From the IMG/VR virus record IMGVR_UViG_3300031994_000033, positions 67,627 to 131,626 of that record: DNA of 64,000 nucleotides; one strand, written 5' to 3'. Below, in pieces: positions 6,806 through 59,962 of the stretch (within the stretch, counting starts at the first letter, position 1; every line of letters begins with the position of its first letter). This stretch comes from a virus (Duplodnaviria; Caudoviricetes). A program made the translations under genes and the position numbers. The notes beneath the pieces were generated by a model. The model was not told where the DNA came from and ran no database searches. It was given only the letters and a program-made list of their open reading frames with translations.

Positions 6806-7337
6806 CGAAAACTGCATCTGGTACTCGAATGACGACTGGAACAGCAAATACGACAAATACAAGTTCATGCAGGATCGAATCCTGAAGTTTGTCGAAGACG
6901 CTGACTATGTATCGGCGGAAGACTACGCGTTCGGCGCTGCTGGAGCGACTGGCCTAGTGTTCGACCTAGCCGAGTTCGAAGGCTGGATCAGACAGTCCAT
7001 CTGGCGCATGGGAAAGCCCATCTATCTCTATTCACCGATGACTATCAAGAAGGTCTTCTCGGGCCACGGCAACTCAGACAAGAAGGGTATGTTCGACGCT
7101 TACAAGCGAGTTACGCTCGTAAAGCCTGATTTGAGCATCTTTCCTCCAGTGACTAATGGTAAGAAGGGCCAACCTGGCGCAAGTGACGTGATCGACGCTT
7201 ATGGCGCTGCTATGACGCTCATAACTGAGCTTCTAATCGAACGAGATGGACCAGAGAAGTTCCCGAAGCACATCCAGGAATTCTGGAAGAACAGAACACG
7301 AGAGGTCATTCTAGGTTACAAGGAGACGGTAAGATGA
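6681..7337 (+). CDS. RuvC-like Holliday junction resolvase
   Basis: KIAGLDMSVTHTG, VSAEDYAF, DLAEFEG, PMTIKKVFSGHGNSDK and DVIDAY: RNase H-fold catalytic pattern. Confidence 0.8.
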   Translation: MKIAGLDMSVTHTGAVKLELDERLNILNADWLTFTTTKKYASENCIWYSNDDWNSKYDKYKFMQDRILKFVEDADYVSAEDYAFGAAGATGLVFDLAEFEGWIRQSIWRMGKPIYLYSPMTIKKVFSGHGNSDKKGMFDAYKRVTLVKPDLSIFPPVTNGKKGQPGASDVIDAYGAAMTLITELLIERDGPEKFPKHIQEFWKNRTREVILGYKETVR

Positions 7338-7984
7338 GCTTACAGATAAAGGGAATATCCTTCGATGATCTGCTTTGTCAGACGATGATGTGCGTACTCG
7401 ACAACTTCACTTCAGTATTCGCTAAAGAGGAAGACGTAACGCTCACAGCTCAGAGGACAGACTGTCCGCATATCCGTGAGGTGATCCAAGCCTTTCCAAA
7501 GAAGATGGATCAGCTGCGTAAGCTATACGTGACGGAAGCTGAGATCGATCGTTCTCATCGTGAGTACAAGAAGACTGGAAATGGCACATTCCACTTCAAT
7601 TCAGTGAATCGCGAGAACAATCACGTCAATGGCGCGTGCCTCACTAGCATAGAGTACACGCAGGACGAAGTGACTGTCAACATTCGCGCATCAATCGCGC
7701 CTTACAACCTGCAGTTCGACTTGGTATTGATCTCAGACCTGATCCGCGAGCTAGGTCTGTCGCCGAAGCAGATCACGATAAAGATCGGCTACATTGCGTC
7801 AAAGCCAGTCCACAATCTCTACACATTCGTGCTATACGGGATGAGCAGAGAAGACATTCAGGACACCGCTTATGGCAGATCGATCTGGACTTCTTACGAG
7901 CGTGCTCTGACAGACAGATGTAAATTCAATAGCATGAAGGCTATTGCGAGAAAGATTCAAGAGAAACTAAAGGATCAAAAGTAA
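7334..7984 (+). CDS. Divergent thymidylate-synthase-fold protein, paralog 1
   Basis: GACLTSIEY..VNIRAS...LQFDLV aligns to the TS PC...RS.D...N/D core. Confidence 0.5.
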   Translation: MSLQIKGISFDDLLCQTMMCVLDNFTSVFAKEEDVTLTAQRTDCPHIREVIQAFPKKMDQLRKLYVTEAEIDRSHREYKKTGNGTFHFNSVNRENNHVNGACLTSIEYTQDEVTVNIRASIAPYNLQFDLVLISDLIRELGLSPKQITIKIGYIASKPVHNLYTFVLYGMSREDIQDTAYGRSIWTSYERALTDRCKFNSMKAIARKIQEKLKDQK

Positions 7985-7986
7985 AT

Positions 7987-8709
7987 ATGAGTTTACATTT
8001 CAACTGCACTGACTTTGACGACGTATTTGAGCAGACGGCCACTTGGGCCATGAACAACTTCAAGTGCAACACCTCAAGAGAGGACGATGTCACTATCGAA
8101 TGCACATCGAGAAACTACAGCAAGGGTGGCGACATCGACAGAATGGCTAAGCGTCATCTGAAGAAGATGACCCGTCTGAGAGGCATCTACGTGGAGGAGG
8201 GCGAGCTCGACCGTTCACATGCTGAGCTCGTAAAGACCGGATCATCCGACTTCCGTTTTAAGAACGTCCAGCACGAGTTCGACCACATTCATGGCGGATG
8301 TCTCACAGCTATGCACTTGACTAACGACGAAGTCACGATCACTCTGCGTGCGTCTGTCATTCCCTGGAATCTTCAGTTCGACTTGGTATTGATTTCCGAT
8401 CTTCTTGGAGAACTCGGCTTGAATCCGTCTAAGATCACGTTCAAGATCGGATATATCAGAACGAAGGTCATTCATGCGCTATACACGTATCTCTTGAACG
8501 GCTGGACGCCAGAGAAGATATGCGAGACACGATTCGGAAAGTCGATGATAGCAGCTTACACCAGAGGCTCACGTCCGACATGCAAGTACAAGAACTGGAT
8601 CAGGTTCTGCGCAAGGGTAGACAGAGTGAGAGAAGAGATGGGAATAGGACCTCTGGCACCATATCTAGAAGCAGCGAAAGCAAAAGAAAGAGCAGAAAAT
8701 GGGGTTTAG
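7987..8709 (+). CDS. Divergent thymidylate-synthase-fold protein, paralog 2
   Basis: GGCLTAMHL..ITLRAS...LQFDLVLISDL; clear paralog of 7334-7984. Confidence 0.5.
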   Translation: MSLHFNCTDFDDVFEQTATWAMNNFKCNTSREDDVTIECTSRNYSKGGDIDRMAKRHLKKMTRLRGIYVEEGELDRSHAELVKTGSSDFRFKNVQHEFDHIHGGCLTAMHLTNDEVTITLRASVIPWNLQFDLVLISDLLGELGLNPSKITFKIGYIRTKVIHALYTYLLNGWTPEKICETRFGKSMIAAYTRGSRPTCKYKNWIRFCARVDRVREEMGIGPLAPYLEAAKAKERAENGV

Positions 8710-8733
8710 ATTTCTCATGAAAATACTTATATT
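8705..8733 (+). promoter_or_regulatory. sigma70-like early promoter
   Basis: TTTAGA-N17-TATATT; motif recurs more than 10 times in intergenic DNA. Confidence 0.75.
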
Positions 8734-9546: not shown

Positions 9547-9573
9547 AGAGCAGATCCGTTCTGCTCTATTGTT
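9547..9573 (+). terminator. Probable terminator hairpin
   Basis: AGAGCAGA/TCTGCTCT stem after the stop codon. Confidence 0.5.
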
Positions 9574-9613
9574 GTGTAAACTTAAGTTTACTTATACTGC
9601 TTTTTATAAAGGG

Positions 9614-9642
9614 TTTAGAATTCTCACGGATTTACCTATATT
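9614..9642 (+). promoter_or_regulatory. sigma70-like early promoter for the paralog array operon
   Basis: TTTAGA-N17-TATATT, followed by the leader AACTTCAACAAAGGACC. Confidence 0.75.
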
Positions 9643-9672: not shown

Positions 9673-9966
9673 ATGAATCTCCACGACCAGCTTGACTACA
9701 AGATCGAACCGATGGGCGCACTCTGTTACCTGTCTAGCGCAAGCCATATCAATCACAAGCGCATCGAGGAGTCAGACTTCGTCAACAAGTACGACCACGA
9801 CTCTGAGAACGCTCAAGAATACGGCTGCGGAAACATGAAGGCAGACGTCAAGGCATCAACTCCTGAAGTACTTGCTAAGTATGGAATTGACGAGGACGAG
9901 TACAAGATCATCGCTTTCGAGATCTCGCATGCTCTCTCGTTCGGTCCTTGCGGATGGTGCGTATGA
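9673..9966 (+). CDS. Hypothetical protein
   Basis: ORF with AAGGA RBS; C-terminal CGWC. Confidence 0.75.
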   Translation: MNLHDQLDYKIEPMGALCYLSSASHINHKRIEESDFVNKYDHDSENAQEYGCGNMKADVKASTPEVLAKYGIDEDEYKIIAFEISHALSFGPCGWCV

Positions 9967-10175
9967 TCACTTCAAGAGACGCTTTCATGATACTCGATCG
10001 GAACGGATTTCGCGTACCGAACGGTGGTGACAGCTACGGAGAGATCACGTACAACGGCGAACGATCGAAGCAGGTCAGAGCCTGCTTCGAAAATCGGAAC
10101 AACAAGATGTGTGAGATCGACAGACAGATCGCTATTCTTGAGGCTGAGTACTATCGTAGACATAAGGAAGACTAA
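9963..10175 (+). CDS. Short or truncated member of the tandem paralog family
   Basis: MITSRDAFMILDRNGFRV...ITYNGE matches the family N-terminus; ATGA overlap. Confidence 0.55.
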   Translation: MITSRDAFMILDRNGFRVPNGGDSYGEITYNGERSKQVRACFENRNNKMCEIDRQIAILEAEYYRRHKED

Positions 10176-10519
10176 TGGAATTAACTATAGCAGAAGCGAA
10201 AGAGATCATTGAATCGAGAGGATTGACTATCGACTCTAACATGCCGAATGATCAGAATCCTGCGATCTACTGGAAGGGCGAATGGGTCGGCTACATATCG
10301 GAGTTCAGCGTATCCATACACCAGGATCTTCCGTCTCTCGGACTGACTGAACAAGGCGAGCTGATTCCGTTCTCTGACGGCAATGCAGACCAACGGCTAT
10401 CTAGAAGGATAGACACATTGAAGGATTCGCCCAGAAGATATGAAGAAGGTCTGCGTCAGGAGAAAGTGGACGACATACGCGACTACTTCAACAGACGCAA
10501 GGACAGAACATGTGCTTGA
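10175..10519 (+). CDS. Tandem paralog family member (YF-helix)
   Basis: ...RRYEEGLRQEKVDDIRDYFNRR. Confidence 0.8.
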   Translation: MELTIAEAKEIIESRGLTIDSNMPNDQNPAIYWKGEWVGYISEFSVSIHQDLPSLGLTEQGELIPFSDGNADQRLSRRIDTLKDSPRRYEEGLRQEKVDDIRDYFNRRKDRTCA

Positions 10520-10875
10520 CATACTATGAAGCGATGAATCTTTTGAAGTCGAAAGGTATCGAGTTCGACGGCAACGAACTCCTTCTCGATGGTGAAGTCG
10601 TAGGACATCTGTGGGAAACAATGCTCGTCATATCCAAAGAAATTCCGTCTCTATACAATCGTCTGTATGCTGAAATGGAGAAGACTAGGATCGGATTGAG
10701 CAGCGCCGATGCTCAAGAAGCGATCTCAAAGGCAGTCAAATGTCTCAAATCGTCACAAGTTCGATACGAGAAGACATTGAAAGAGATGAGAATCTCCGAT
10801 ATACGCGACTACTTCAAGAGACGCAAGAACGCTGTAAACGAAATTGAACAATTTATGCTAGCGGAGATGTGCTGA
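10510..10875 (+). CDS. Tandem paralog family member
   Basis: ...RYEKTLKEMRISDIRDYFKRR. Confidence 0.8.
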   Translation: MCLTYYEAMNLLKSKGIEFDGNELLLDGEVVGHLWETMLVISKEIPSLYNRLYAEMEKTRIGLSSADAQEAISKAVKCLKSSQVRYEKTLKEMRISDIRDYFKRRKNAVNEIEQFMLAEMC

Positions 10876-11327
10876 TGCAATTGCTTGACAAGTCGAGAGG
10901 ACCGCTTCCTGGAAGCGTCGCGAACAACCGCAAGTTCGTGATCAACTATATGCGCAATCACGGATTCGAAGTCAAAGCGGACGGCCTGTCTGAATATCCC
11001 GACAAGTACAACTACTATCTTCGTGGCGAGCTAGTAGCGTTGTCGTATGAGAACGTTATGTATCTCTATCCTGTTCTGCAATCACTTGTCGAGATGGGCA
11101 TTCTAGCGCAGAGAAGAAATACTGAGATACCGTTCGATCTGCCGAGCATCGAAGTACACAATCGTCTGCAAGAGGCTGTGAAGGAGCTCAAGAACAGCTA
11201 TGACTCTTATGACGATCTAGTCAAGAAGTCGAGAGTGCAGAAGATCAGAGAGTATTTCAAGTACAGGAATATCGAGAATCAGGATGTAAAAGAGTACAAC
11301 AAGCTTATGAAAGGGCTAATGAGATGA
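10869..11327 (+). CDS. Tandem paralog family member
   Basis: ...SYDDLVKKSRVQKIREYFKYR. Confidence 0.8.
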   Translation: MLMQLLDKSRGPLPGSVANNRKFVINYMRNHGFEVKADGLSEYPDKYNYYLRGELVALSYENVMYLYPVLQSLVEMGILAQRRNTEIPFDLPSIEVHNRLQEAVKELKNSYDSYDDLVKKSRVQKIREYFKYRNIENQDVKEYNKLMKGLMR

Positions 11328-11728
11328 CGAGAGATGAAGTAGAGCTGAGAATGAAGCAGATCGGATTCGAGCTACGAAGAGAAGATCCGCAGGATCCTTA
11401 TGCTACTATCTGGCTGAACAACGAGCTCATTGGAGATCTGACTCCAGCTGGAATCGATGTAGCTATCTATCTTCCGAGTTATGTTGGTAAAAATTGGATG
11501 GCTGTCGAACGACAGAGATGCGGTTATGGTACGATAGCAAATGCGAACTACTTCAGGAATCTTAAACGCGATCTTCTCGATACTCCGAGACGCTATGATG
11601 AAGCGCTGAGGAAAGCACGAGTGAAGGAAGTACAGAAGTATTTCAAGTACAAGCAAGAGTCTCACAGGTTAGCTGATCTTGCATGGAAAACCTTGTACCC
11701 AGGATTCAAGAAGGCAAGAGGTGAGTGA
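11324..11728 (+). CDS. Tandem paralog family member
   Basis: ...RRYDEALRKARVKEVQKYFKYK. Confidence 0.8.
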   Translation: MTRDEVELRMKQIGFELRREDPQDPYATIWLNNELIGDLTPAGIDVAIYLPSYVGKNWMAVERQRCGYGTIANANYFRNLKRDLLDTPRRYDEALRKARVKEVQKYFKYKQESHRLADLAWKTLYPGFKKARGE

Positions 11729-12078
11729 TGAAGATAAAATTGTTTGAAGTGTCAAAGCTGCTAGATGAGGCAGGTTTCGAACGCAAAGGCATCGAAGTCG
11801 ATTACTTGGGAGAACGAGTTGGAAGACAGTGGCACGATGAGCTCGTGCTCTTTGACGAGCACCCGAGAATCAGCTTAAAAGACTACGAGAATGCAGACAA
11901 GACCTTCGTCAAGTACAAAGACAAAGAAGCGAAAGAGAAGATAATAGCAGCTATTCGCACGCTCAAGGAATCTCATCGAGAGTACGAGCAGAAGATCCGA
12001 TCCGACAAGGTCAGCGCTATCAAGATGTACTTCGATCTGAGAAAGGAAAGACAAGAGATGCATGAGAGGATGGTATAA
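11725..12078 (+). CDS. Tandem paralog family member
   Basis: ...EYEQKIRSDKVSAIKMYFDLR. Confidence 0.8.
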   Translation: MMKIKLFEVSKLLDEAGFERKGIEVDYLGERVGRQWHDELVLFDEHPRISLKDYENADKTFVKYKDKEAKEKIIAAIRTLKESHREYEQKIRSDKVSAIKMYFDLRKERQEMHERMV

Positions 12079-12080
12079 TT

Positions 12081-12503
12081 ATGAATGAAGAGATCTCTAG
12101 GACAAGAGAGATTGCAATTGAACGGCTTCAGGCAGCTGGTCTCGAAGTTACTGATGTACCGCGAGACAAGACGACATATCCTGATCTTCACTTCGAGATA
12201 TGGTATCACGGCGAGAAGGTCGGTGACATATACGAAAACGAGATGTATCTCGCTACAGCGCTGCCATCTCTAGAACAGCTGGGCGTATTCACGTCAGTGT
12301 CTAAGAGCTCGATAGCTTTCGGCGTTCAGAGCGCCATCGATCTGCTTCTGACCGAGACGTTAGAGAGACTGACGAGATCAGCCGAGAAATACGACGAGCT
12401 CGTCCGCGAGAAGCGCATCACTGACGTTCGAAACTACTTCAAAGACAGAGAAGACAGAGAGTTCGCTAAGTCACTACATGACGCAGACAGGAGCAGAGTA
12501 TGA
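12081..12503 (+). CDS. Tandem paralog family member
   Basis: ...KYDELVREKRITDVRNYFKDR. Confidence 0.8.
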   Translation: MNEEISRTREIAIERLQAAGLEVTDVPRDKTTYPDLHFEIWYHGEKVGDIYENEMYLATALPSLEQLGVFTSVSKSSIAFGVQSAIDLLLTETLERLTRSAEKYDELVREKRITDVRNYFKDREDREFAKSLHDADRSRV

Positions 12504-12841
12504 AGCTAACAAGAGCTGAATGCATATACCTGATCGAGAAGGCTGGAATGGAAGTCAAAGAGGAGAACATCAGCCTCAACGCATATCGTGACCGGATATT
12601 GTACAAGGATGAGAGGATAGGCACTGTGTACTATGACAGCGTATCGCTCAGCCCTCACTACGACTATGACGACAGTCCAGTGACTATCAAGTACAGAGAA
12701 GAGAACGCAGTGGAGCGGCTAGAGAAAGCTCTAAACTTGATAGTCAACTACGATGCTGAGTCTGAGCTGAGAACTCAGAGAGTCAAGGCAGTCAAGAAGT
12801 ACTTCGAAGACAAAGCGATAGAGAAGAAGTGGAGTGTATGA
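12500..12841 (+). CDS. Tandem paralog family member
   Basis: ...SELRTQRVKAVKKYFEDK. Confidence 0.8.
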   Translation: MKLTRAECIYLIEKAGMEVKEENISLNAYRDRILYKDERIGTVYYDSVSLSPHYDYDDSPVTIKYREENAVERLEKALNLIVNYDAESELRTQRVKAVKKYFEDKAIEKKWSV

Positions 12842-12941: not shown

Positions 12942-13457
12942 ATGACCATTACTGACGAAAAGTATTTCAGAGAGCATAGCGATGTAGTTCAGGTCAGTGC
13001 GTATGCGCTGCACGATGTTCTTCATGCTCTCAAGAACGATAACTGCGAGTGCCTAGTGTCCAAGGAAGACGGACATATAGTCGTGCATTACTGTAAGAAA
13101 CGCAAAGAAAAGACTGATGACAAATCTTCAGCGTGCACAGATTGTAACTCGGACTCAGAACAGACGATTGACTTGCACGACTGGAACGATGTCTCAAACA
13201 CGAAAATCCCACTCAACGAGGAAATCTTCGCTCTGCTCGAAGACAGGCAGAATCCAGAAAAACTCAGACCGGAAGTCATCGTCGCAAAGATGATGCTAGC
13301 CAAGAGACTTCTCTGGACGGAAAACAAAGAAGGCTATGTCCTCTGCTACGATGTCCCAGCAGGCAACTTCCATAGCTGCAACGGGTCCCAAATCAAGTAC
13401 TGGAAACCTGTTGACATCCCTGTGAGAACTAGACGAGGCAACATCGAAGACCAATAG
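12942..13457 (+). CDS. Hypothetical protein
   Basis: AAGGAG RBS; C-terminal IKYWKPV resembles DUF551-like phage domains. Confidence 0.7.
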   Translation: MTITDEKYFREHSDVVQVSAYALHDVLHALKNDNCECLVSKEDGHIVVHYCKKRKEKTDDKSSACTDCNSDSEQTIDLHDWNDVSNTKIPLNEEIFALLEDRQNPEKLRPEVIVAKMMLAKRLLWTENKEGYVLCYDVPAGNFHSCNGSQIKYWKPVDIPVRTRRGNIEDQ

Positions 13458-13470
13458 AGGAGAAACTCCA

Positions 13471-13914
13471 ATGATTCTCGCAATCCTATTGATCATCTTC
13501 ATCATCGTACTCATATCAGCACTACTGTACATCCTCGGACGCTTAGTAGCAAAGCGTATGATCTCAAGGCGAAAGAAGTATCAAGATCATATCGACAGCA
13601 TGGTAGAAGAGCTGTTTCCTCCATCTATCCAAGCGGCTATCCAAGACTCTTCTGCTATAGACACGACTATCCAAGCGGCTATCCAAGACACTACTGTCCA
13701 AGAAGCTGCTGTCATCGAGTCAGATCTCCAGCGCCAAGAGGCCAAGCGCAAGATGGTCGCAGACATCCGCAAGTACTTCAATCAACGCAAGATAGACGCA
13801 ACACTCGCAAAGGTACAGGGATCTAGTGACTTCGTTAAGATCAATCCGTCAGCAGGATCTTATAGCGAGCAGATCATCCCGTCTCCTCCATCTCTCCAGA
13901 TGATCCTCGAATGA
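13471..13914 (+). CDS. N-terminally membrane-anchored protein carrying the YF-helix motif
   Basis: Hydrophobic residues 2-22; IQAAIQD repeats; KRKMVADIRKYFNQRK. Confidence 0.75.
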   Translation: MILAILLIIFIIVLISALLYILGRLVAKRMISRRKKYQDHIDSMVEELFPPSIQAAIQDSSAIDTTIQAAIQDTTVQEAAVIESDLQRQEAKRKMVADIRKYFNQRKIDATLAKVQGSSDFVKINPSAGSYSEQIIPSPPSLQMILE

Positions 13915-14625
13915 CATCCTCCCATCCCTATAAGGATCTCTGTTATAGTCCCCATACTTGGAAAGTGTCCTCTTATTGGCACTATTTCCGGCAGGTTTCC
14001 TGGCCGCTATACCCGGCCCAAAACCGGCAATTTCACCGGGTCCCAGTATAAAACGCTCTCACTTCCAAAACTTTGTATTAAGGCATATAGCCGTCTATCC
14101 GTCCCGTCTCACCCGAAGGTGCCCTATATCGCGACGGGATCCCTCACGTTCACGCACGGAGAAATTTCCAAAAAAAAATTCCTAAAAAAATTTGACTCCT
14201 CGCAATCGCCACGCAGAATCCGCCAAAACCTCGCAGAACCCGCAAAACTCATGTTATGTTCAAAACTGGGTTTATGTTCAAAAACCCATCTTATGTCCAA
14301 AACCCCCGTTATGTTGCCGTCCGAAGAAATTTTTCCAAAAAATTTTTCCAAAAAAAATTGACCCACGTGCGCTTGCCTCTATCGCAGATGCCTCTATCGC
14401 AGATGCCTCTATCGCAGATGCCTCTAAATGCGCTTTATCTTACATCGCGAGAAATTTTTTCCAAATTTTTTTTTCCAAATTTTTTGGGCTTCTTCAACAC
14501 CCCAGCTGATGGCTTCGTGAGGGAAACGTAACGTAATGAAAATATGATGAAGCTGAGAAAACTTCCTGAGACAGAAAATTTTCTATTGCAGAAAAGTTTC
14601 TAGCACAGAAAAGTTTCTATATATA
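13915..14625. repeat. Non-coding repeat-rich region, putative replication origin
   Basis: Three A/T-tract blocks (about 14160, 14326, 14451); TTATGTTCAAAA-like x4 (14254-14315); GCCTCTATCGCAGAT x3 (14375-14426); CAGAAAAGTTTCTA-like x3 (14572-14619); local C-rich to G-rich switch. Confidence 0.6.
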
Positions 14626-17023: not shown

Positions 17024-18400
17024 ATGATAGTATCTGGTGGACACATTTTAGCGATAGATGAAGTAGAGCACGACTTGAGCCTGTATGGAGACGGGGTCGG
17101 CCTTCCGCTTGGCGTCAGGAGAGACTACGTCGACAAGATAGAGTCCGTCTCTAGCAAGCTAGACGTGGTAGAGTTTCAAGAATGGTCGGCGCAGACTGAA
17201 CACTGGGACGTCGAGGAGTACTCTGGCGCAGATGGAATCGAAGTCAGCGGACACGTGATATTCGCTGATGCATCTCCTATCGTCGGAAGCGGATCAGTAG
17301 TGATTCTGCCAGGAGAGGACGGCTCGGTCGTCGTATCGGGAGAAGAAGTCGATCTGAGCGGCTATGCGACAGAAGAATGGGTCCGAGAGAGCTACACTCC
17401 TAAGCTAGAGCCATACGATGACAGCGTTCTGCTGGTCGGCAGCGCTAACGGCGAATACGACTGGGTCAAGATCCGTTCTTCTAAGTTCGGCAGCTCGCTC
17501 GTAGACTCTTCTGCCGATCTCGTCTGGTCTGAGGACAGCGATGCGCATCTCAGCGAGAACGCAGTGGAGCTATGGAGCGAGTTCTCCGGAATCGGATTCG
17601 GCGCAGAGAGAGCTTACGCTGACGTCGAGGGAAATCCGTTCTTGGACACTTACGCCACGATCGTGAGCGTGAGCTCTGGGCTAGCGCAGAAGCAAGACGA
17701 GCTTCGCTTCGGATATGACGCTTCTGGAGAGATCGTATCCATCAACAGCAGCGCTATAGCGCAGACCAAGCAAGAGCAGGCCGACTGGACAGAAGAAGAC
17801 TCTTCTGTTCCGTCTTATATAAAGAACAAGCCAGACACTTCTGAGCTAGTCGAGGGCTACGGCATCGTCTTGACATACGAGCAGGGAAGCCTGATCGTCT
17901 CGACTTCTGGCATGGCTAGTTCGGGCTATGTCGATCAATCAGTCTCTGGAAAGATGGACAAGTCCTCTTCAGCAGACTTCTATCCGATGGCTGCGAATCC
18001 GTCTGGCTATCTGATCCATTCTGATCTGAACGATTACGCTACGAAGTCAGATCTAGACTACGTATCGGGTGCAGTCGATGACTTATCCGATGACCTCGAC
18101 GACGTCTCCGCTAGCATACATGACGCCAAGCTGAAACTGCAGCTCGGCTCGGGCCAGGCTTCTGATACCGGGTTCACCGCAAATGCGGCATCGGACACCA
18201 CGGTGACTATTCCCGAAATGACCGGGGCTACGTCAGCTGCCAATGGTGTTGCGGGACTTGTACCTGCCCCAGCTGCCGGTGACGAGGACAAGGTCTTGAA
18301 GGGTGACGGAACATGGGGTGAAGCTGGAAGCTCAGTTAGAGTCATCTACGATGCAGTCAACGAAGAACTGCATCTCGACTTCAGCAATGGAGGTAACTAG
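17024..18400 (+). CDS. Tail fibre-like structural protein
   Basis: VDLSGYATEEWV, QADWTEED..SYIKNKP, GLVPAPAAG..LKGDGTW fibre motifs. Confidence 0.7.
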   Translation: MIVSGGHILAIDEVEHDLSLYGDGVGLPLGVRRDYVDKIESVSSKLDVVEFQEWSAQTEHWDVEEYSGADGIEVSGHVIFADASPIVGSGSVVILPGEDGSVVVSGEEVDLSGYATEEWVRESYTPKLEPYDDSVLLVGSANGEYDWVKIRSSKFGSSLVDSSADLVWSEDSDAHLSENAVELWSEFSGIGFGAERAYADVEGNPFLDTYATIVSVSSGLAQKQDELRFGYDASGEIVSINSSAIAQTKQEQADWTEEDSSVPSYIKNKPDTSELVEGYGIVLTYEQGSLIVSTSGMASSGYVDQSVSGKMDKSSSADFYPMAANPSGYLIHSDLNDYATKSDLDYVSGAVDDLSDDLDDVSASIHDAKLKLQLGSGQASDTGFTANAASDTTVTIPEMTGATSAANGVAGLVPAPAAGDEDKVLKGDGTWGEAGSSVRVIYDAVNEELHLDFSNGGN

Positions 18401-18401
18401 T

Positions 18402-19193
18402 ATGGCAGTGACTTATTCGCAGAATGGCGTGATTGTTAGAGGAGTATATTCATACCATAAGACATATGAATTTGGTAATTACCTTGTGGATTCTAATGGA
18501 TATATAGGTGAAGTACTTACACCTAGTTCTGGAAAAAGAACTAATGTTTCGATAGTAGATGCCAATGCAGATTTTTCAAATTCTGGATTAGGACAAGTCA
18601 CTTTTATTGAGTATGGAACAGTAGAAATTCAAGGAATTGAGCATAATACAGTAAAAGCAGGTTCTTTAATATGGCTTGCTGAAAATCTTAAAGTTGAATT
18701 TGCTGACATACCATTATTGACTGTCAACGACTTTCCTTCTACAAAAGGAATGTGGTGGATGAATGATGATAAACAAGCAGCGTTGACTAAAAGAAGAGGT
18801 GCATTGTACAACTGGTATGCTGCAAAGTACATAGATGATAATAAGTCTACATTACTTCCATCAGGTTGGCGAATGCCTACATATAATGATTGGCAGGCAT
18901 TAGGCACAGCTGCTGGAGGTGGCTCTATTGCTGGTAGAGTTTTGAAGTCTAGTAGTCAAATGTGGCAATATGGTTGGGATGGCGACGATTTGCTAGGATT
19001 TTTTGTTCAGGAGTCTGGAAGTATTCGCCAATCAGGGCAATATAGGGATTTGGAAGCTAATTATTGGACTATCTCACCTATTGGTAGTAACTATCACAAT
19101 TTTTATTTTAATAGTGATGTCGATAGACTTGGAACGTATCCTGACCCTCCAGAACGTGGTTATGCATTGCGACTGGTAAAGGACATTACCTAA
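18402..19193 (+). CDS. Fib_succ_major (FISUMP)-domain protein
   Basis: WLAENL, GALYNWYAA, LPSGWRMPT..DW, GYALRLVKD. Confidence 0.8.
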   Translation: MAVTYSQNGVIVRGVYSYHKTYEFGNYLVDSNGYIGEVLTPSSGKRTNVSIVDANADFSNSGLGQVTFIEYGTVEIQGIEHNTVKAGSLIWLAENLKVEFADIPLLTVNDFPSTKGMWWMNDDKQAALTKRRGALYNWYAAKYIDDNKSTLLPSGWRMPTYNDWQALGTAAGGGSIAGRVLKSSSQMWQYGWDGDDLLGFFVQESGSIRQSGQYRDLEANYWTISPIGSNYHNFYFNSDVDRLGTYPDPPERGYALRLVKDIT

Positions 19194-19205
19194 AGGAGCA
19201 AGTAT

Positions 19206-19880
19206 ATGTCAGGATATTTATTGAAATTTAAGCAAAGATATTCAGTCAAGATAGGCGGACGCAAGTACCCGGTTGTCAAGATTGGGAATCAGTTGTGGAT
19301 GGCTGAGAATTTGGACTGGAAGTTCACTGGATGCGATATTGCTCCAGCAGGGTCCCCTTCAACTCCTTCCGCTTGGTACTATAACAATGACGAAGTGAGC
19401 TATGGAATAGATGGGACATACAAATGTGGATTGTTATATAACTGGTATGCGGCTAAGTACATAGACGATAATAAGGCTACATTGTTGCCTGATGGTTGGC
19501 ATGTTCCTTCGTTTGGTGAATATGAAACATTATGTACTGTAGTTGCTCCTGAAGGTGCTGGTTATCATGTCAATTATAAAGCAGGACGAAAGTTAAGAGC
19601 TATTGATGGATATATTGTTAGTTCAAGTCCTATTTGGCCTTCTGATTGGAACGGTAATGATGAAAGTGGATTCCATGCACTACCTGCTGGCTCAAGAGAT
19701 TACTATGGAAATTTTAGTGGACTAAATGATTATTCATGCATATGGAGTATAACGCCTGTCGGCAAAGAAGATAATATATATTATTTTCAAATGTGGAAAG
19801 GTGAAGAGTCTGCTTCATATAGTGCATGGGGCAATAAATTAACAGGATTTTCTATCCGTCTTGTCAAGGACCTAACATAA
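19206..19880 (+). CDS. Fib_succ_major (FISUMP)-domain protein
   Basis: VVKIGNQLWMAENL, GLLYNWYAA, PDGWHVPS, GFHALPAG, GFSIRLVKD. Confidence 0.85.
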   Translation: MSGYLLKFKQRYSVKIGGRKYPVVKIGNQLWMAENLDWKFTGCDIAPAGSPSTPSAWYYNNDEVSYGIDGTYKCGLLYNWYAAKYIDDNKATLLPDGWHVPSFGEYETLCTVVAPEGAGYHVNYKAGRKLRAIDGYIVSSSPIWPSDWNGNDESGFHALPAGSRDYYGNFSGLNDYSCIWSITPVGKEDNIYYFQMWKGEESASYSAWGNKLTGFSIRLVKDLT

Positions 19881-32198: not shown

Positions 32199-33056
32199 AT
32201 GGTTGAATTCGACACGATAGATACTCCGAGCTACATCCGCAGCAAGCTCAAGGACTACATTCACATGGAGCCCAGAGAGGAAGAGTCTGTGATAAGCATC
32301 ATGCTGGATCCGAAGTATGAGCGTCGCATCAGAGACGCTGCGAGAAACAAGCTCGTTCAGTCTCATGCCAGGCTGATGTACAGCGTAGCGCACATGTATG
32401 CTAGAAGATACAACAAGCAGGTAGGCGATCTGTTCCAAGCAGCCTATATCGGCATGTTCAACGCGACGCTAAAGTATGATCCGAAAAGAGGAGTCAAGTT
32501 CACGTCGTTCGCCATCTGGTGGATCACTCAGAAGATACAAGAAGAGATCTATGTAGAGAACTGCAAAGTCCACTGTCCCATGTACAGCAAAGCTGAAGCT
32601 GAGCGACACAAAGACTCGTCTAATCTAGACCTCGAAGACAGCTCTGGTCGAAAGTTCCTTCACGCTATGCCGATAGTCATATCGACAGAGACTCCGCTAT
32701 ACAACGGAGATAGCGCTATTGAAGAGGGTCAGCTTACGCTAATAGACTCGATCAAGTCGATCGACAATGGAATAGACCATCTGTTCACTGAAGAAGAAGA
32801 CCGTAAGCTGGGAATACTGCTGAAGGGTATTCTAGAAAGCAAAGAGTACTCTATGATCAAAGACAGCTACTATTACGGGCTGACTCAGAATCAGATCGGC
32901 GAGAAGCACGGCCTGTCTGGAGAGCGCATCAGACAGAAGAAGGGAAGAGCGCAAGTCATCGCTAGAAACGCTCTTAGAAAGCTGATGAAGGAACACAAGT
33001 TCGCTTACACGAACGATGCGAAAGAGTGCAGCATAGCTAAAGTTTTCGAGGTATAA
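32199..33056 (+). CDS. RNA polymerase sigma70-family factor (RpoD/RpoS-like, regions 2-4)
   Basis: DLFQAAYIGM..A..KYDPKRGVKFTSFAIWWI (region 2); LTQNQIG...GLSGERIRQ (region 4). Confidence 0.9.
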   Translation: MVEFDTIDTPSYIRSKLKDYIHMEPREEESVISIMLDPKYERRIRDAARNKLVQSHARLMYSVAHMYARRYNKQVGDLFQAAYIGMFNATLKYDPKRGVKFTSFAIWWITQKIQEEIYVENCKVHCPMYSKAEAERHKDSSNLDLEDSSGRKFLHAMPIVISTETPLYNGDSAIEEGQLTLIDSIKSIDNGIDHLFTEEEDRKLGILLKGILESKEYSMIKDSYYYGLTQNQIGEKHGLSGERIRQKKGRAQVIARNALRKLMKEHKFAYTNDAKECSIAKVFEV

Positions 33057-36791: not shown

Positions 36792-36931
36792 TCATGTTCT
36801 ATATCGTCATAGGAGTAGTAGTTCTATATCTCTGTCTATTGATCGCTTGCATTATAAAGTGTGTCAAGAGGTCTGACAAGCAGTTCAGGATAGTCGATTC
36901 GATTTTTGATGAGGACGAACACAATGGCTAA
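36788..36931 (+). CDS. Small single-TM protein (47 aa), not in the ORF track
   Basis: MIMFYIVIGVVVLYLCLLIACIIKC...; overlaps both neighbours. Confidence 0.55.
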   Translation: MIMFYIVIGVVVLYLCLLIACIIKCVKRSDKQFRIVDSIFDEDEHNG

Positions 36932-37790
36932 GTTAGCAATCTCAATCTCTGGCGGCGGTGCGCTTGGTTGCGGACCGCTTCAGTTCATGTGCAGGTTGGA
37001 ATCCGATCTAGGAAAGAAGCTCACAGATCAGAGCGTGGCTTTCGCTGGAACTTCAACTGGCGCTATCATCGCAGCATGTCTAGCAGAGTGTATGTCTGCT
37101 CACGACATCTTCGATCTGTACAAGAACAACTTGAAGAAGATCTTCACGAAGTACCCGTGGTACAAGAGAATCGAGCCTAAGTGTCCGACTTACGACAACT
37201 CGACTCTGAAGGATCTGCTCAAGAAGAATCTCGACGGCAACATCATGGATTGGAAAAAGCCTATCTTCATTCCTACGACTGCTATGAACGGCAAATCTCG
37301 TGAGAAGGTATGGGATCTTGGTGATCCTAAGGTAGAGAAGTGGTTCGCTGTTCTGACGAGCGCTGCTGCACCACGATACTTCGACGTGATCGACAGAGAC
37401 GGCATCTCATACTGCGATGGCGGTATGTGGGCTAACGATCCAGTATCTTGTCTACAGTCTGGTTTGAAGAACATGTGCTTCAACAAGAAGTACAAGATTC
37501 TCACGTTCGCTACCTGCATGATGACTCCAAATACCTCGAGAGGCAACAAGACCATGTTGGGTTGGGGCGAGTACATCTTAGAGGACTGGGTCGCTACGAC
37601 TGGTAACGCTAACTTCTTTGAAGCGAGAGCGAACGTGGGCTACAACAACATCTTCCGTGCTTCTCCTGAGCATCCGACAAAGATCAAGATGGACAAGACA
37701 GACGACGATACGATCAATCATGTCATCGAAGTCTGGGATAAATACTACGACTCGGTCCGAGACCAGGTTGTGAAGTTTGTAAAGGAGTAA
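36924..37790 (+). CDS. Patatin-like phospholipase
   Basis: SGGGALG, GTSTG, SAAAP.YF, DGG..AN.P. Confidence 0.9.
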   Translation: MAKLAISISGGGALGCGPLQFMCRLESDLGKKLTDQSVAFAGTSTGAIIAACLAECMSAHDIFDLYKNNLKKIFTKYPWYKRIEPKCPTYDNSTLKDLLKKNLDGNIMDWKKPIFIPTTAMNGKSREKVWDLGDPKVEKWFAVLTSAAAPRYFDVIDRDGISYCDGGMWANDPVSCLQSGLKNMCFNKKYKILTFATCMMTPNTSRGNKTMLGWGEYILEDWVATTGNANFFEARANVGYNNIFRASPEHPTKIKMDKTDDDTINHVIEVWDKYYDSVRDQVVKFVKE

Positions 37791-43758: not shown

Positions 43759-43798
43759 AAAATCCTGGGTTTAGAAATACTCAGGATTTTCTTAAATT
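43759..43798 (+). promoter_or_regulatory. Terminator hairpin overlapping a sigma70-like promoter
   Basis: AAAATCCTGGGT/ACTCAGGATTTT stem containing TTTAGA (43770), with TAAATT at 43793. Confidence 0.6.
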
Positions 43799-57976: not shown

Positions 57977-58013
57977 AACTCTGGGTTTACAACGCCGCCA
58001 GAGTTTCTATATT
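57977..58013 (+). promoter_or_regulatory. sigma70-like promoter inside a hairpin
   Basis: TTTACA-N16-TATATT; AACTCTGG/CCAGAGTT stem. Confidence 0.65.
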
Positions 58014-59066: not shown

Positions 59067-59322
59067 TCGTGCAACTATTCTGGCTGCTCAATACGCAGGC
59101 AACAGCACTGAGATGCTATATCCGCCACAGATCGGATTCTGGATCATTGGCGGCATAATACTATTTCTGGTGATACTGCTAGCAGTCGGATCCTACATTT
59201 TTGACAAAATAACTTACAAAGAACACGAACAAATCTGGAAAGAGGTAAACTATGACAACAGAACAGTGGGCGAAGAACGAAGTCGCGATCGCGATGGACA
59301 AAGAACGCAAGGCAGCCGATAA
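59047..59322 (+). CDS. Single-TM protein
   Basis: IGFWIIGGIILFLVILLAVG. Confidence 0.55.
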   Translation: MNVELSNRATILAAQYAGNSTEMLYPPQIGFWIIGGIILFLVILLAVGSYIFDKITYKEHEQIWKEVNYDNRTVGEERSRDRDGQRTQGSR

Positions 59323-59962
59323 AGAAGGCACTGTCGGAATCGGCTATGCGAACGCTTGCTACCAGTCTGCGCTCAAGGCATATAACTGCATGTGCGAAGA
59401 CGATCACTCGGGCATGTCCTGGTCGATCACAGCGAACATTCTCATCCGTCTCTTGAGAGAAGCCCCTCTCACTCCGATCGAGGAAGACGAAGAGTGCTGG
59501 TCTAACAAGGATTCTTTCAACAACGACGAACAGTGTCTCCGCAGATTCTCTCTGTTCCGTAAAAAGCAGCCTGATGGAACTTACAAGTATCACGACATCG
59601 ATCTCGTATGCACTTGCTATGCCGAGAAGGATCACTTCTGCACCTGCACTTCTAGAAAGGGCGATCTTATCGCAGAGAAGTTCTTCGGACCGCTGATCAA
59701 GTTCCCGTACTATCCGCCAGCTGACCGCTATCAGGTCCGCATGATCGAGTTCGACAATCTCTGCGACGAACGTGGCAACGAGATCTGCTTCGTGATCTCT
59801 GCTAAGTCTCCGTATGGCGAGACTAAGCAGATCATGGACTTCTACGCTTTCACTGCTGAAGGTGCAAAGAAGCTCAAGGCCGCAGATGTCGAACCGAAAC
59901 TCTCCGAGAAAGATCAGCAAGAACTTAAGGAAAATCTCGAGTTCTCTAATTCTCGAAAATAA
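59252..59962 (+). CDS. Conserved phage hypothetical protein
   Basis: WAKNEV...ACYQSALKAY...DHSGMSW...PLTPI. Confidence 0.75.
   Translation: MTTEQWAKNEVAIAMDKERKAADKEGTVGIGYANACYQSALKAYNCMCEDDHSGMSWSITANILIRLLREAPLTPIEEDEECWSNKDSFNNDEQCLRRFSLFRKKQPDGTYKYHDIDLVCTCYAEKDHFCTCTSRKGDLIAEKFFGPLIKFPYYPPADRYQVRMIEFDNLCDERGNEICFVISAKSPYGETKQIMDFYAFTAEGAKKLKAADVEPKLSEKDQQELKENLEFSNSRK

Follow-up and report, generated by a model that had tools for sequence, protein, structure and literature searches.

The tandem gene array at 9963-12841 of the DNA analysed here encodes a family of small proteins, the YF family, whose members share a helical module, the YF helix. Both the family and the module are undescribed in the libraries and literature that we searched. 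The DNA (the window, 64,000 nucleotides) forms the final 64 kb of an IMG/VR virus record, which is 131.6 kb long and has a completeness rating of 52%, and it belongs to an uncultured, T4-like phage of about 245 kb from the sheep or cattle gut. Eight open reading frames (ORFs) lie back to back on the + strand, of which seven are full length (113-150 amino acids [aa]) and join a divergent head to the common helix. Our preferred but tentative reading, which we would not yet call probable, is that the array supplies a repertoire of binder heads mounted on a shared docking helix that addresses one common partner outside the family.

Array proteins and their shared helix

The array genes w1 to w7 are coupled through overlaps of 1-10 nucleotides or, in one case, a 2-nucleotide gap (Table 1). 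An earlier note, made from the sequence alone, had described a tandem array of diverged paralogs with a truncated first gene. The seven ORFs are placed as it described, and their paralogy is significant by two measures: all seven are linked by all-versus-all BLASTP at 21-39% identity (w1-w2, 3e-19; w2-w5, 1e-15; w3-w6, 1e-13; w5-w7, 4e-7), and a profile built from the seven copies recovered each of them at E values of 1e-33 to 1e-44 and nothing elsewhere in the 131-kb record. The pattern [RK][VIL]xx[VIM][RKHQ]xYFxx[RKH] occurs seven times in the six-frame translation of that record, 7/7 within the array, while codon-block shuffles (n=200) yielded 0.035 occurrences on average and never more than 1. 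The truncated gene is likewise real. Read from the ATG at 9963, w0 retains ~36 N-terminal residues of a 112-aa type, complete copies of which exist in relatives, and continues as a post-YF tail resembling that of a w1-type gene in relative L010. A ninth carrier of the module, w9, lies beyond the range that the earlier note had given. Its tail ends in a conserved peptide, P-P-S-[IL]-x-x-[IL]-[LM]-E, common to the orthologs at L010:9742-10137 and L018:8979-9371, which may constitute a second short linear motif.

Alignment of the carriers from six genomes (the window phage and five relatives) gave a basic, amphipathic consensus of 22 residues, roughly [YF]-[DE]-[DE]-x-h-[RK]-x-x-[RK]-[VI]-x-x-[VIM]-[RK]-x-Y-F-x-x-[RK]-[KR]. 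The Y and F are invariant in 57/57 carriers, and the other strongly conserved positions are [RK] at 6, 9, 14, 20, and 21 and [VIM] at 10 and 13. In our reading of the alignment, the conserved positions make up roughly half of the helix circumference and the variable positions the other half. The codons used at conserved positions vary (AGA, CGC, CGT, CGA, AGG, and CGG for Arg; GTC, GTG, and GTA for Val); selection therefore acts on the peptide rather than on the DNA, and a DNA-level element in this stretch was ruled out on the same ground. The module is found on at least five backgrounds: behind the canonical head, on a beta-rich head (three genomes), on a protein with a transmembrane (TM) anchor (three genomes), at the N-terminal side of an acidic protein, and in a 53-aa protein that consists of the helix only. 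The architecture of variable head and constant helix that had been proposed for the array is thus upheld, the helix being portable and conserved at the protein level.

The Y-F pair has been lost in a sub-branch of canonical-head proteins (L013:9177-9497, L015:7432-7770, L016:2525-2845, and L016:4936-5277), where the sequence reads, for example, R-L-R-Y-A-[VI]-D-L-H. This sub-branch could serve as a natural negative control for YF function.

AlphaFold models of w2 (pLDDT, the predicted local distance difference test score, 92.6; alignment of 72 sequences) and w3 (pLDDT 88.9; 90 sequences) share one topology, with an N-terminal helix, a five-stranded antiparallel sheet accompanied by a short helix, and a very long terminal helix. 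The head is accordingly predicted to be an alpha/beta sandwich. The terminal helix (~57 residues; residues ~64-120 in w2 and 91-149 in w3) superposes in both models on straight coiled-coil helices of 56-60 residues. Contact with the sheet is limited to its first ~17 residues, so that ~40 residues protrude without intramolecular contacts. The two modules also differ in mean charge, which is -3.4 for the heads and +2.9 for the helix module; most carriers have an isoelectric point (pI) of 5-6, and only the w3 type is basic.

The helix is not confined to the array. In the relative G001 (243,336 bp, with direct terminal repeats and rated complete), the module profile matched 8 array genes and one 295-aa ORF ~85 kb away, and nothing else. 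At least 25 orthologs of the 295-aa protein, at 60-98% identity and on contigs of up to 258 kb, all keep the module in the form [RK]..[DE]-K-L-x-A-[IV]-[RK]-x-Y-F..[RKH]-K, followed by a Lys/Ala-rich, histone-H1-like tail. Profile-profile comparison of this family with the array family aligned 27 module columns and no others, and the 295-aa protein itself is an orphan that matched no known family in our searches. Its gene lies in G001 among a polyA-polymerase-like gene, a metallophosphatase gene, and a thymidylate-synthase-like gene, and it has an upstream hairpin, a promoter of the same class, and a near-identical leader to those of the array operon. The gene is absent from the sequenced 131-kb part of the window's own genome, which, at 52% completeness, says nothing of the remainder.

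The array operon is probably expressed early, judging from its upstream sequence. The earlier note had placed an early-type promoter near 9614, and a sigma-70-like site is indeed present there, as one member of a recurrent class (GGTTTAGA-N15-17-TATATT) with 8 copies in the 131-kb record. The copies at 8703-8733 and 9612-9642 match a longer shared promoter pattern exactly, and those at 43768-43798 and 57984-58013 are one-mismatch members of the class with purine-rich leaders (AGAGGA / AAGAGGA). A leader of the form ...GTAAA...AAGGACC-N5-ATG stands at 5 of the 8 promoter copies, including that of the array, and a CAGGAG leader stands at 8703-8733. The terminator-like hairpin and promoter resemble, by analogy, the promoter-early stem-loop (PeSL) layout of T4-type phages, and the same order of hairpin and promoter is found upstream of the 295-aa gene in G001.

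That no family could be recognised, as had been stated from the sequence alone, also held in the libraries searched, none of which contains a characterised family that the profile matches. Pfam (at E values up to 1), PHROGs, NCBIfam, and PADLOC gave only chance-level matches for all carriers and for the non-canonical heads. A profile search of the Protein Data Bank (PDB) by sequence returned nothing credible, Foldseek searches with the models against PDB and BFVD gave no match at E <= 0.001, and the ESM Atlas held no usable match for w3 or the 295-aa protein. A word-indexed profile search yielded 159 proteins, all of them unnamed or 'hypothetical'. An exhaustive hidden Markov model search of 1.84 billion representatives returned only 84 clusters, all of proteins of 53-177 aa, and none of these showed a fusion of the family to a known domain. 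The beta-rich head, searched alone, did not turn up outside this lineage; the proteins that carry it measure 89-135 aa (mostly ~125 aa). All sampled family members lie within one phage lineage, so the family appears, from its sequence distribution, to be private to it. No paper was found on the family or on Fibrobacter or rumen jumbo phages that carry it.

Table 1. Positions of the array genes and associated features (window coordinates unless another record is named)
Feature	Position	Strand	Description
Terminator-like hairpin	9547..9567	+	Directly upstream of the operon promoter
Putative sigma-70-like promoter (function inferred from sequence)	9612..9642	+	GGTTTAGA-N15-17-TATATT, then leader ...CAAAGGACC-N5-ATG
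First operon gene	9673..9966	+	97 aa, Cys-rich, unrelated to the YF family; in close relatives, not in L013
w0	9963..10175	+	Internally deleted copy; 5' part of the 112-aa type T3 plus post-YF tail
w1	10175..10519	+	114 aa, canonical head plus YF helix, type T4
Repeat copy 1	10475..10504	+	Codons for the D-I-R-D-Y-F...R-R-K stretch; 28/30 nucleotides
w2	10510..10875	+	121 aa, type T11
Repeat copy 2	10801..10830	+	28/30 nucleotides; the L018 chimeric gene crosses over here
w3	10875..11327	+	150 aa, basic (pI ~9), type T1
w4	11324..11728	+	134 aa, type T17
w5	11728..12078	+	116 aa, type T18; post-YF tail matches the tail on a different L010 head type
w6	12081..12503	+	140 aa, type T32; tail common to other head types
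w7	12500..12841	+	113 aa, type T5
Unrelated gene between w7 and w9	12942..13457	+	171 aa; no tblastn match in L009, L010, L013, L014
w9	13471..13914	+	147 aa, type T7: N-terminal TM segment, basic residues, low-complexity linker, YF helix, tail
295-aa YF carrier	L022:113-1000 = G001:C1:126912-127799		Module profile match

Head types and cassette exchange

Clustered at identities of at least 45%, the heads of the six genomes form 32 types, and each genome holds 8-13 carriers. Only T1, the type of w3, is universal (6/6 genomes), and the type of w6 is present in 0/5 relatives. The ratio of nonsynonymous to synonymous divergence (omega) for the heads ranges from 0.08 to 0.43 per ortholog pair, with a pooled value of 0.27. 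The heads are thus old and maintained rather than racing, and these values rule out diversifying selection on them; the diversified heads that the earlier note had envisaged turn out to be old types under purifying selection rather than fast-evolving ones. Nor did anything connect the array with anti-defence, a role suggested in the earlier note.

Within the same ortholog pair, the helix and tail often diverge far more than the head, because tails swap between head types. For instance, the head of w7 is 83-92% identical in L010 and L013 while its helix and tail appear to have been exchanged, and the nonsynonymous divergence between w7 and its L010 counterpart is 0.02 in the head, 0.24 in the helix, and 0.52 in the tail. 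The breakpoints of BLASTN mosaics fall within the YF codons. One such junction is resolved in a five-way alignment, in which an L018 gene is of the w1 type up to the D-I-R-D-Y-F codons and of the w2 type thereafter. Consequently, L018 lacks the segment comprising the w1 tail and the w2 head, which in the window is bounded by the two 30-nucleotide repeats. The identity of these repeats at 28 of 30 positions, remarked upon earlier, was confirmed. On the sequence comparison, the repeat marks the junction of a cassette gain or loss, with homogenisation through gene conversion as a possible further source of its near-identity. Conserved genes border the array on both sides and the block between these flanks differs from phage to phage, so the array region qualifies as a hyperplastic region.

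A further product of recombination within the array is P0001 (217 aa, on a 69-kb Logan contig), a natural protein in which a w1-type head, ending just ahead of the YF module, is fused in frame to a complete w3-type protein.

Proposed docking to a common partner and the alternatives

Under the docking reading introduced above, a hyperplastic and probably early operon would encode a repertoire of small cytoplasmic proteins of two modules each. Each old, separately conserved version of the head would have a ligand of its own, most likely a protein of the host or of the phage, and the protruding 22-residue helix would act as a portable handle for protein-protein docking. All carriers (the array proteins, the membrane-anchored member, the helix-only mini-protein, and the conserved early protein of ~300 aa) would be linked by this helix to a single partner from outside the family. 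Homologous recombination within the YF codons creates new combinations by inserting or removing a cassette made of a tail and the head that follows it, so related phages carry different sets. The 97-aa product of the first operon gene was considered as the universal partner and ruled out, since it is absent from L013.

Several observations weigh against docking on a common partner. No partner for the YF helix was found, and co-occurrence cannot point to one because all relatives belong to one phage lineage. No RNA run is listed with the array stretch, and the early timing is inferred. With Z no higher than 6.3, the fold matches are weak and point to no function. Purifying selection on the heads is unlike what is expected of an arms-race repertoire. 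In addition, most known short docking peptides differ from the module, which lies inside a long predicted helix and has variable tails behind it. Finally, the protruding helix could equally pair with other YF helices.

This last possibility underlies a less probable but serious alternative, in which the YF helix is a self-association module that builds homo- or hetero-oligomers from helix to helix, with no external partner; the ~300-aa protein, w3, or both would be the hubs, and the TM member would tether the assembly to the membrane. An amphipathic helix of ~40 residues protrudes in both models and aligns with coiled-coil helices. Its hydrophobic seam is formed by module positions 10, 13, and 17, positions 2-3 are acidic, and positions 20-21 are basic, a distribution that would allow antiparallel self-complementarity. 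Tight translational coupling is typical of the subunits of complexes, the carriers include a core one present in single copy and one anchored in the membrane, and the natural 53-aa helix-only protein could cap or compete. However, the conserved face is broad, spanning ~180 degrees, and rich in Arg and Lys; one position that would belong to the core is occupied by a basic residue, and the helices of both candidate hubs and of the other carriers are net positive. For these reasons we favour docking over helix-helix self-assembly. The copy sets also differ among relatives, and with only one of the 32 types universal, a fixed form of the hetero-oligomer that the earlier note had offered as an option is unlikely. 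In a further, unlikely reading, the helix would be a phage-private assembly code: the ~300-aa protein, with its histone-H1-like tail, and the membrane carrier would be platforms onto which the head modules plug by helix pairing. If true, such a code would equip the phage with a 'toolbelt' of exchangeable binders that target the host and are stationed at the membrane or on DNA.

We consider it quite improbable that the heads are double-wing DNA-binding domains, akin to the MotA C-terminal domain (CTD) or YjbR, and that the helix docks on RNA polymerase or sigma, which would make the family a group of factors for transcription or DNA processing that differ in DNA specificity. This proposal derives from comparison of the two models by an exhaustive structure aligner, for which a Z of ~8 was treated as meaningful and lower values as a common arrangement. 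The best matches of both models were three structures of PF04237 (MmcQ/YjbR), all below that level (values for w2 and w3, respectively): YjbR 2fki (Z 5.0, root mean square deviation [rmsd] 3.9, 76 residues aligned; Z 6.3, rmsd 2.8, 80 aligned), DUF419 DR2400 2a1v (Z 4.9 and 6.0), and PSPTO_3016 2kfp (Z 4.8 and 5.5). PF04237 proteins have a CyaY-like 'double-wing' fold similar to MotCF (PMC7641849), and the array proteins resemble them and the T4 MotA CTD (Z 4.0-4.8) in their layout of helix, antiparallel sheet, and helix. This T4-like phage also has a sigma-factor gene of its own, and the universal w3 type is basic. Yet matches of comparable strength were obtained with Med17C 4h62_Q (Z 5.0 and 6.1), the Rhs-toxin immunity protein TriTu 7zhm_D (Z 4.5 and 5.9), frataxins (Z 4-5), and CesT-like type III secretion chaperones (1xkp_B, 2bsj, 1ttw, 1s28, and 4jmf_B; Z 4.0-5.0, with no sequence match). 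Neither the PF04237 sequence profile (Pfam and NCBIfam, nine carriers) nor the Pfam models of the MotA activation domain and MotCF matched the carriers. By net charge or pI most heads, and most carriers, are acidic, the long C-terminal helix is an extra element, and the domain order of the models, with the alpha/beta head first and a single helix last, is the reverse of that in MotA, where an N-terminal sigma-binding domain precedes the double wing. The likeness to YjbR/DUF419 is therefore best taken as a model-based, fold-level resemblance only.

The YF module might instead be a tether or degron for an AAA+ protease or unfoldase, making the carriers SspB-like adaptors that hand over the targets bound by their heads, or marking early proteins for timed removal. 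SspB combines a substrate-binding domain with a ClpX-binding tail, a two-module design that the array proteins parallel, and all carriers appear to be early genes. We nevertheless regard this as very unlikely: the 131-kb record, 52% complete, holds no Pfam match to the ClpX zinc finger, ClpP, or AAA_2, and the module is helical and internal rather than a terminal extended peptide.

Binding of a sliding clamp through a PIP-box-like peptide seems still more remote. The PIP-box, a flexible terminal peptide, has the form Q-x-x-h-x-x-a-a (Q-x-x-[ILM]-x-x-[FY]-[FY]) plus a basic flank, and the h-x-x-h-[RK]-x-Y-F of the module, with its basic residues, resembles it in having a hydrophobic residue three positions ahead of an aromatic pair and a basic flank. 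Unlike PIP-box peptides, however, the module has V or I rather than Q at position 1 and sits within a long predicted alpha-helix, and there is no sign of clamp involvement. The C-terminus of the phage DNA polymerase, on inspection, is not YF-like; no gp45 Pfam match was found in the 131-kb record (G000), nor a match to the C-terminal domain model in G001, although clamps diverge; and a membrane-anchored clamp binder would be hard to rationalise. Equally remote is the proposal that the helix has no common partner and is kept for the structure of its own protein and because the repeat promotes cassette shuffling, for the recombination junctions in the YF codons and the swapping of tails between heads are set against codon diversity that reveals peptide-level selection and a module retained by unrelated heads, a helix-only protein, and a single-copy 295-aa protein far from the array.

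Precedents, significance and genomic setting

Phage multigene families that share a handle and sit in hyperplastic regions have precedent; it is the module and the family that are new. In T4-type hyperplastic regions, modules are shuffled by means of PeSLs (Arbiol et al. 2010, PMC2839356). Like these regions, the YF array is a variable block of early genes, small and non-essential, that is set between conserved modules and remodelled by recombination at short repeats, and it is headed by a hairpin-plus-promoter cassette. In contrast to them, its repeat is coding and lies within the codons of a conserved peptide, and the shuffled genes are paralogs rather than unrelated ORFans. The T4 internal-protein (Ip) loci carry an N-terminal capsid-targeting sequence of ~10 residues that is cut off by the prohead protease. 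They are likewise variable loci of diverse small phage proteins in which one short peptide addresses a common machine, as we suggest for the array, whereas the YF module is a 22-residue helix, C-terminal or internal, that stands behind an early-type promoter and occurs also on a membrane-anchored protein.

Homogeneous polyimmunity loci, such as SUKH arrays (Zhang et al. 2012, PMC3482391), are similar in being unidirectional, probably polycistronic tandem sets of distantly related paralogs of one small alpha+beta fold, whose number and type vary between close strains, and one fold match of the YF heads is to an immunity protein (7zhm_D). The YF proteins differ in having no sequence membership in the immunity families of Pfam and NCBIfam, in belonging to a lytic-type phage, and in their protruding helix, which has no counterpart there. 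No toxin genes were seen near the array, whose neighbours are phage core genes, though no search aimed at toxins was made. Poxvirus ankyrin-repeat/PRANC (F-box-like) families join variable target-binding heads to a constant C-terminal element that docks on a host machine. The likeness, many paralogs with variable heads and a constant docking element, is one of analogy only, as fold, kingdom, and partner are unrelated and there is no ubiquitin-like system.

Large phages spend many genes on private multigene families of obscure logic, of which the YF family is a clean case. A reader of the helix, if found, would explain 8-13 genes per genome in a lineage of ruminant (rumen and gut) metagenomes, and helix and reader together might supply a natural tag-and-dock pair. 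The mapped junctions, in turn, show how gene sets are reshuffled. New here are two confident models with their fold neighbourhood, the test of peptide- versus DNA-level conservation, the selection estimates, a cassette junction that explains the 28/30 repeat, and the co-regulated 295-aa carrier.

Relatives of the phage were located on metagenome contigs of 243-264 kb whose record names (STEW19 series, PRJEB21624) suggest rumen studies, and the DNA sample that matches the stretch best is from sheep gut. T4-like marker genes in the record (the nuclease half of the terminase, a T4-type RNase H, a prohead protease, an RNA ligase, and a sigma factor) identify it, at the sequence level, as a distant T4-like phage; the terminase fragment reaches at most ~30% identity to T4-like phages in a cultured phage collection, against which megablast of the array gave no match. 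The terminase ORF at 5215-6297 matches the nuclease (RNaseH-like) domain only, together with a weak intein-splicing match, and the ATPase half is not adjacent.

Directly upstream of the array, 216-aa and 240-aa genes at 7334-8709 are mutual paralogs (42% identity, by tblastn against relatives) and are conserved in the lineage. On its other side, the intergenic region at 14160-14620, which the earlier note took for a putative origin, contains clustered short tandem repeats of several kinds (periods of 13-18 nucleotides), one of them with three exact 15-mers. Two adjacent proteins at 18303-19880 have Fib_succ_major domains (E 2e-19 and 1e-23). From their domains these may be receptor-binding proteins, and they give a weak hint of a Fibrobacter- or Bacteroidota-type host. 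Further along, a phage sigma-70-family factor (regions 2 and 4) and a patatin-like phospholipase are encoded at 32199-33056 and 36906-37790, respectively, and the N-terminal 120 residues of a 236-aa protein at 59252-59962 match Pfam Tad3, a type I Thoeris inhibitor (E 2.7e-21).

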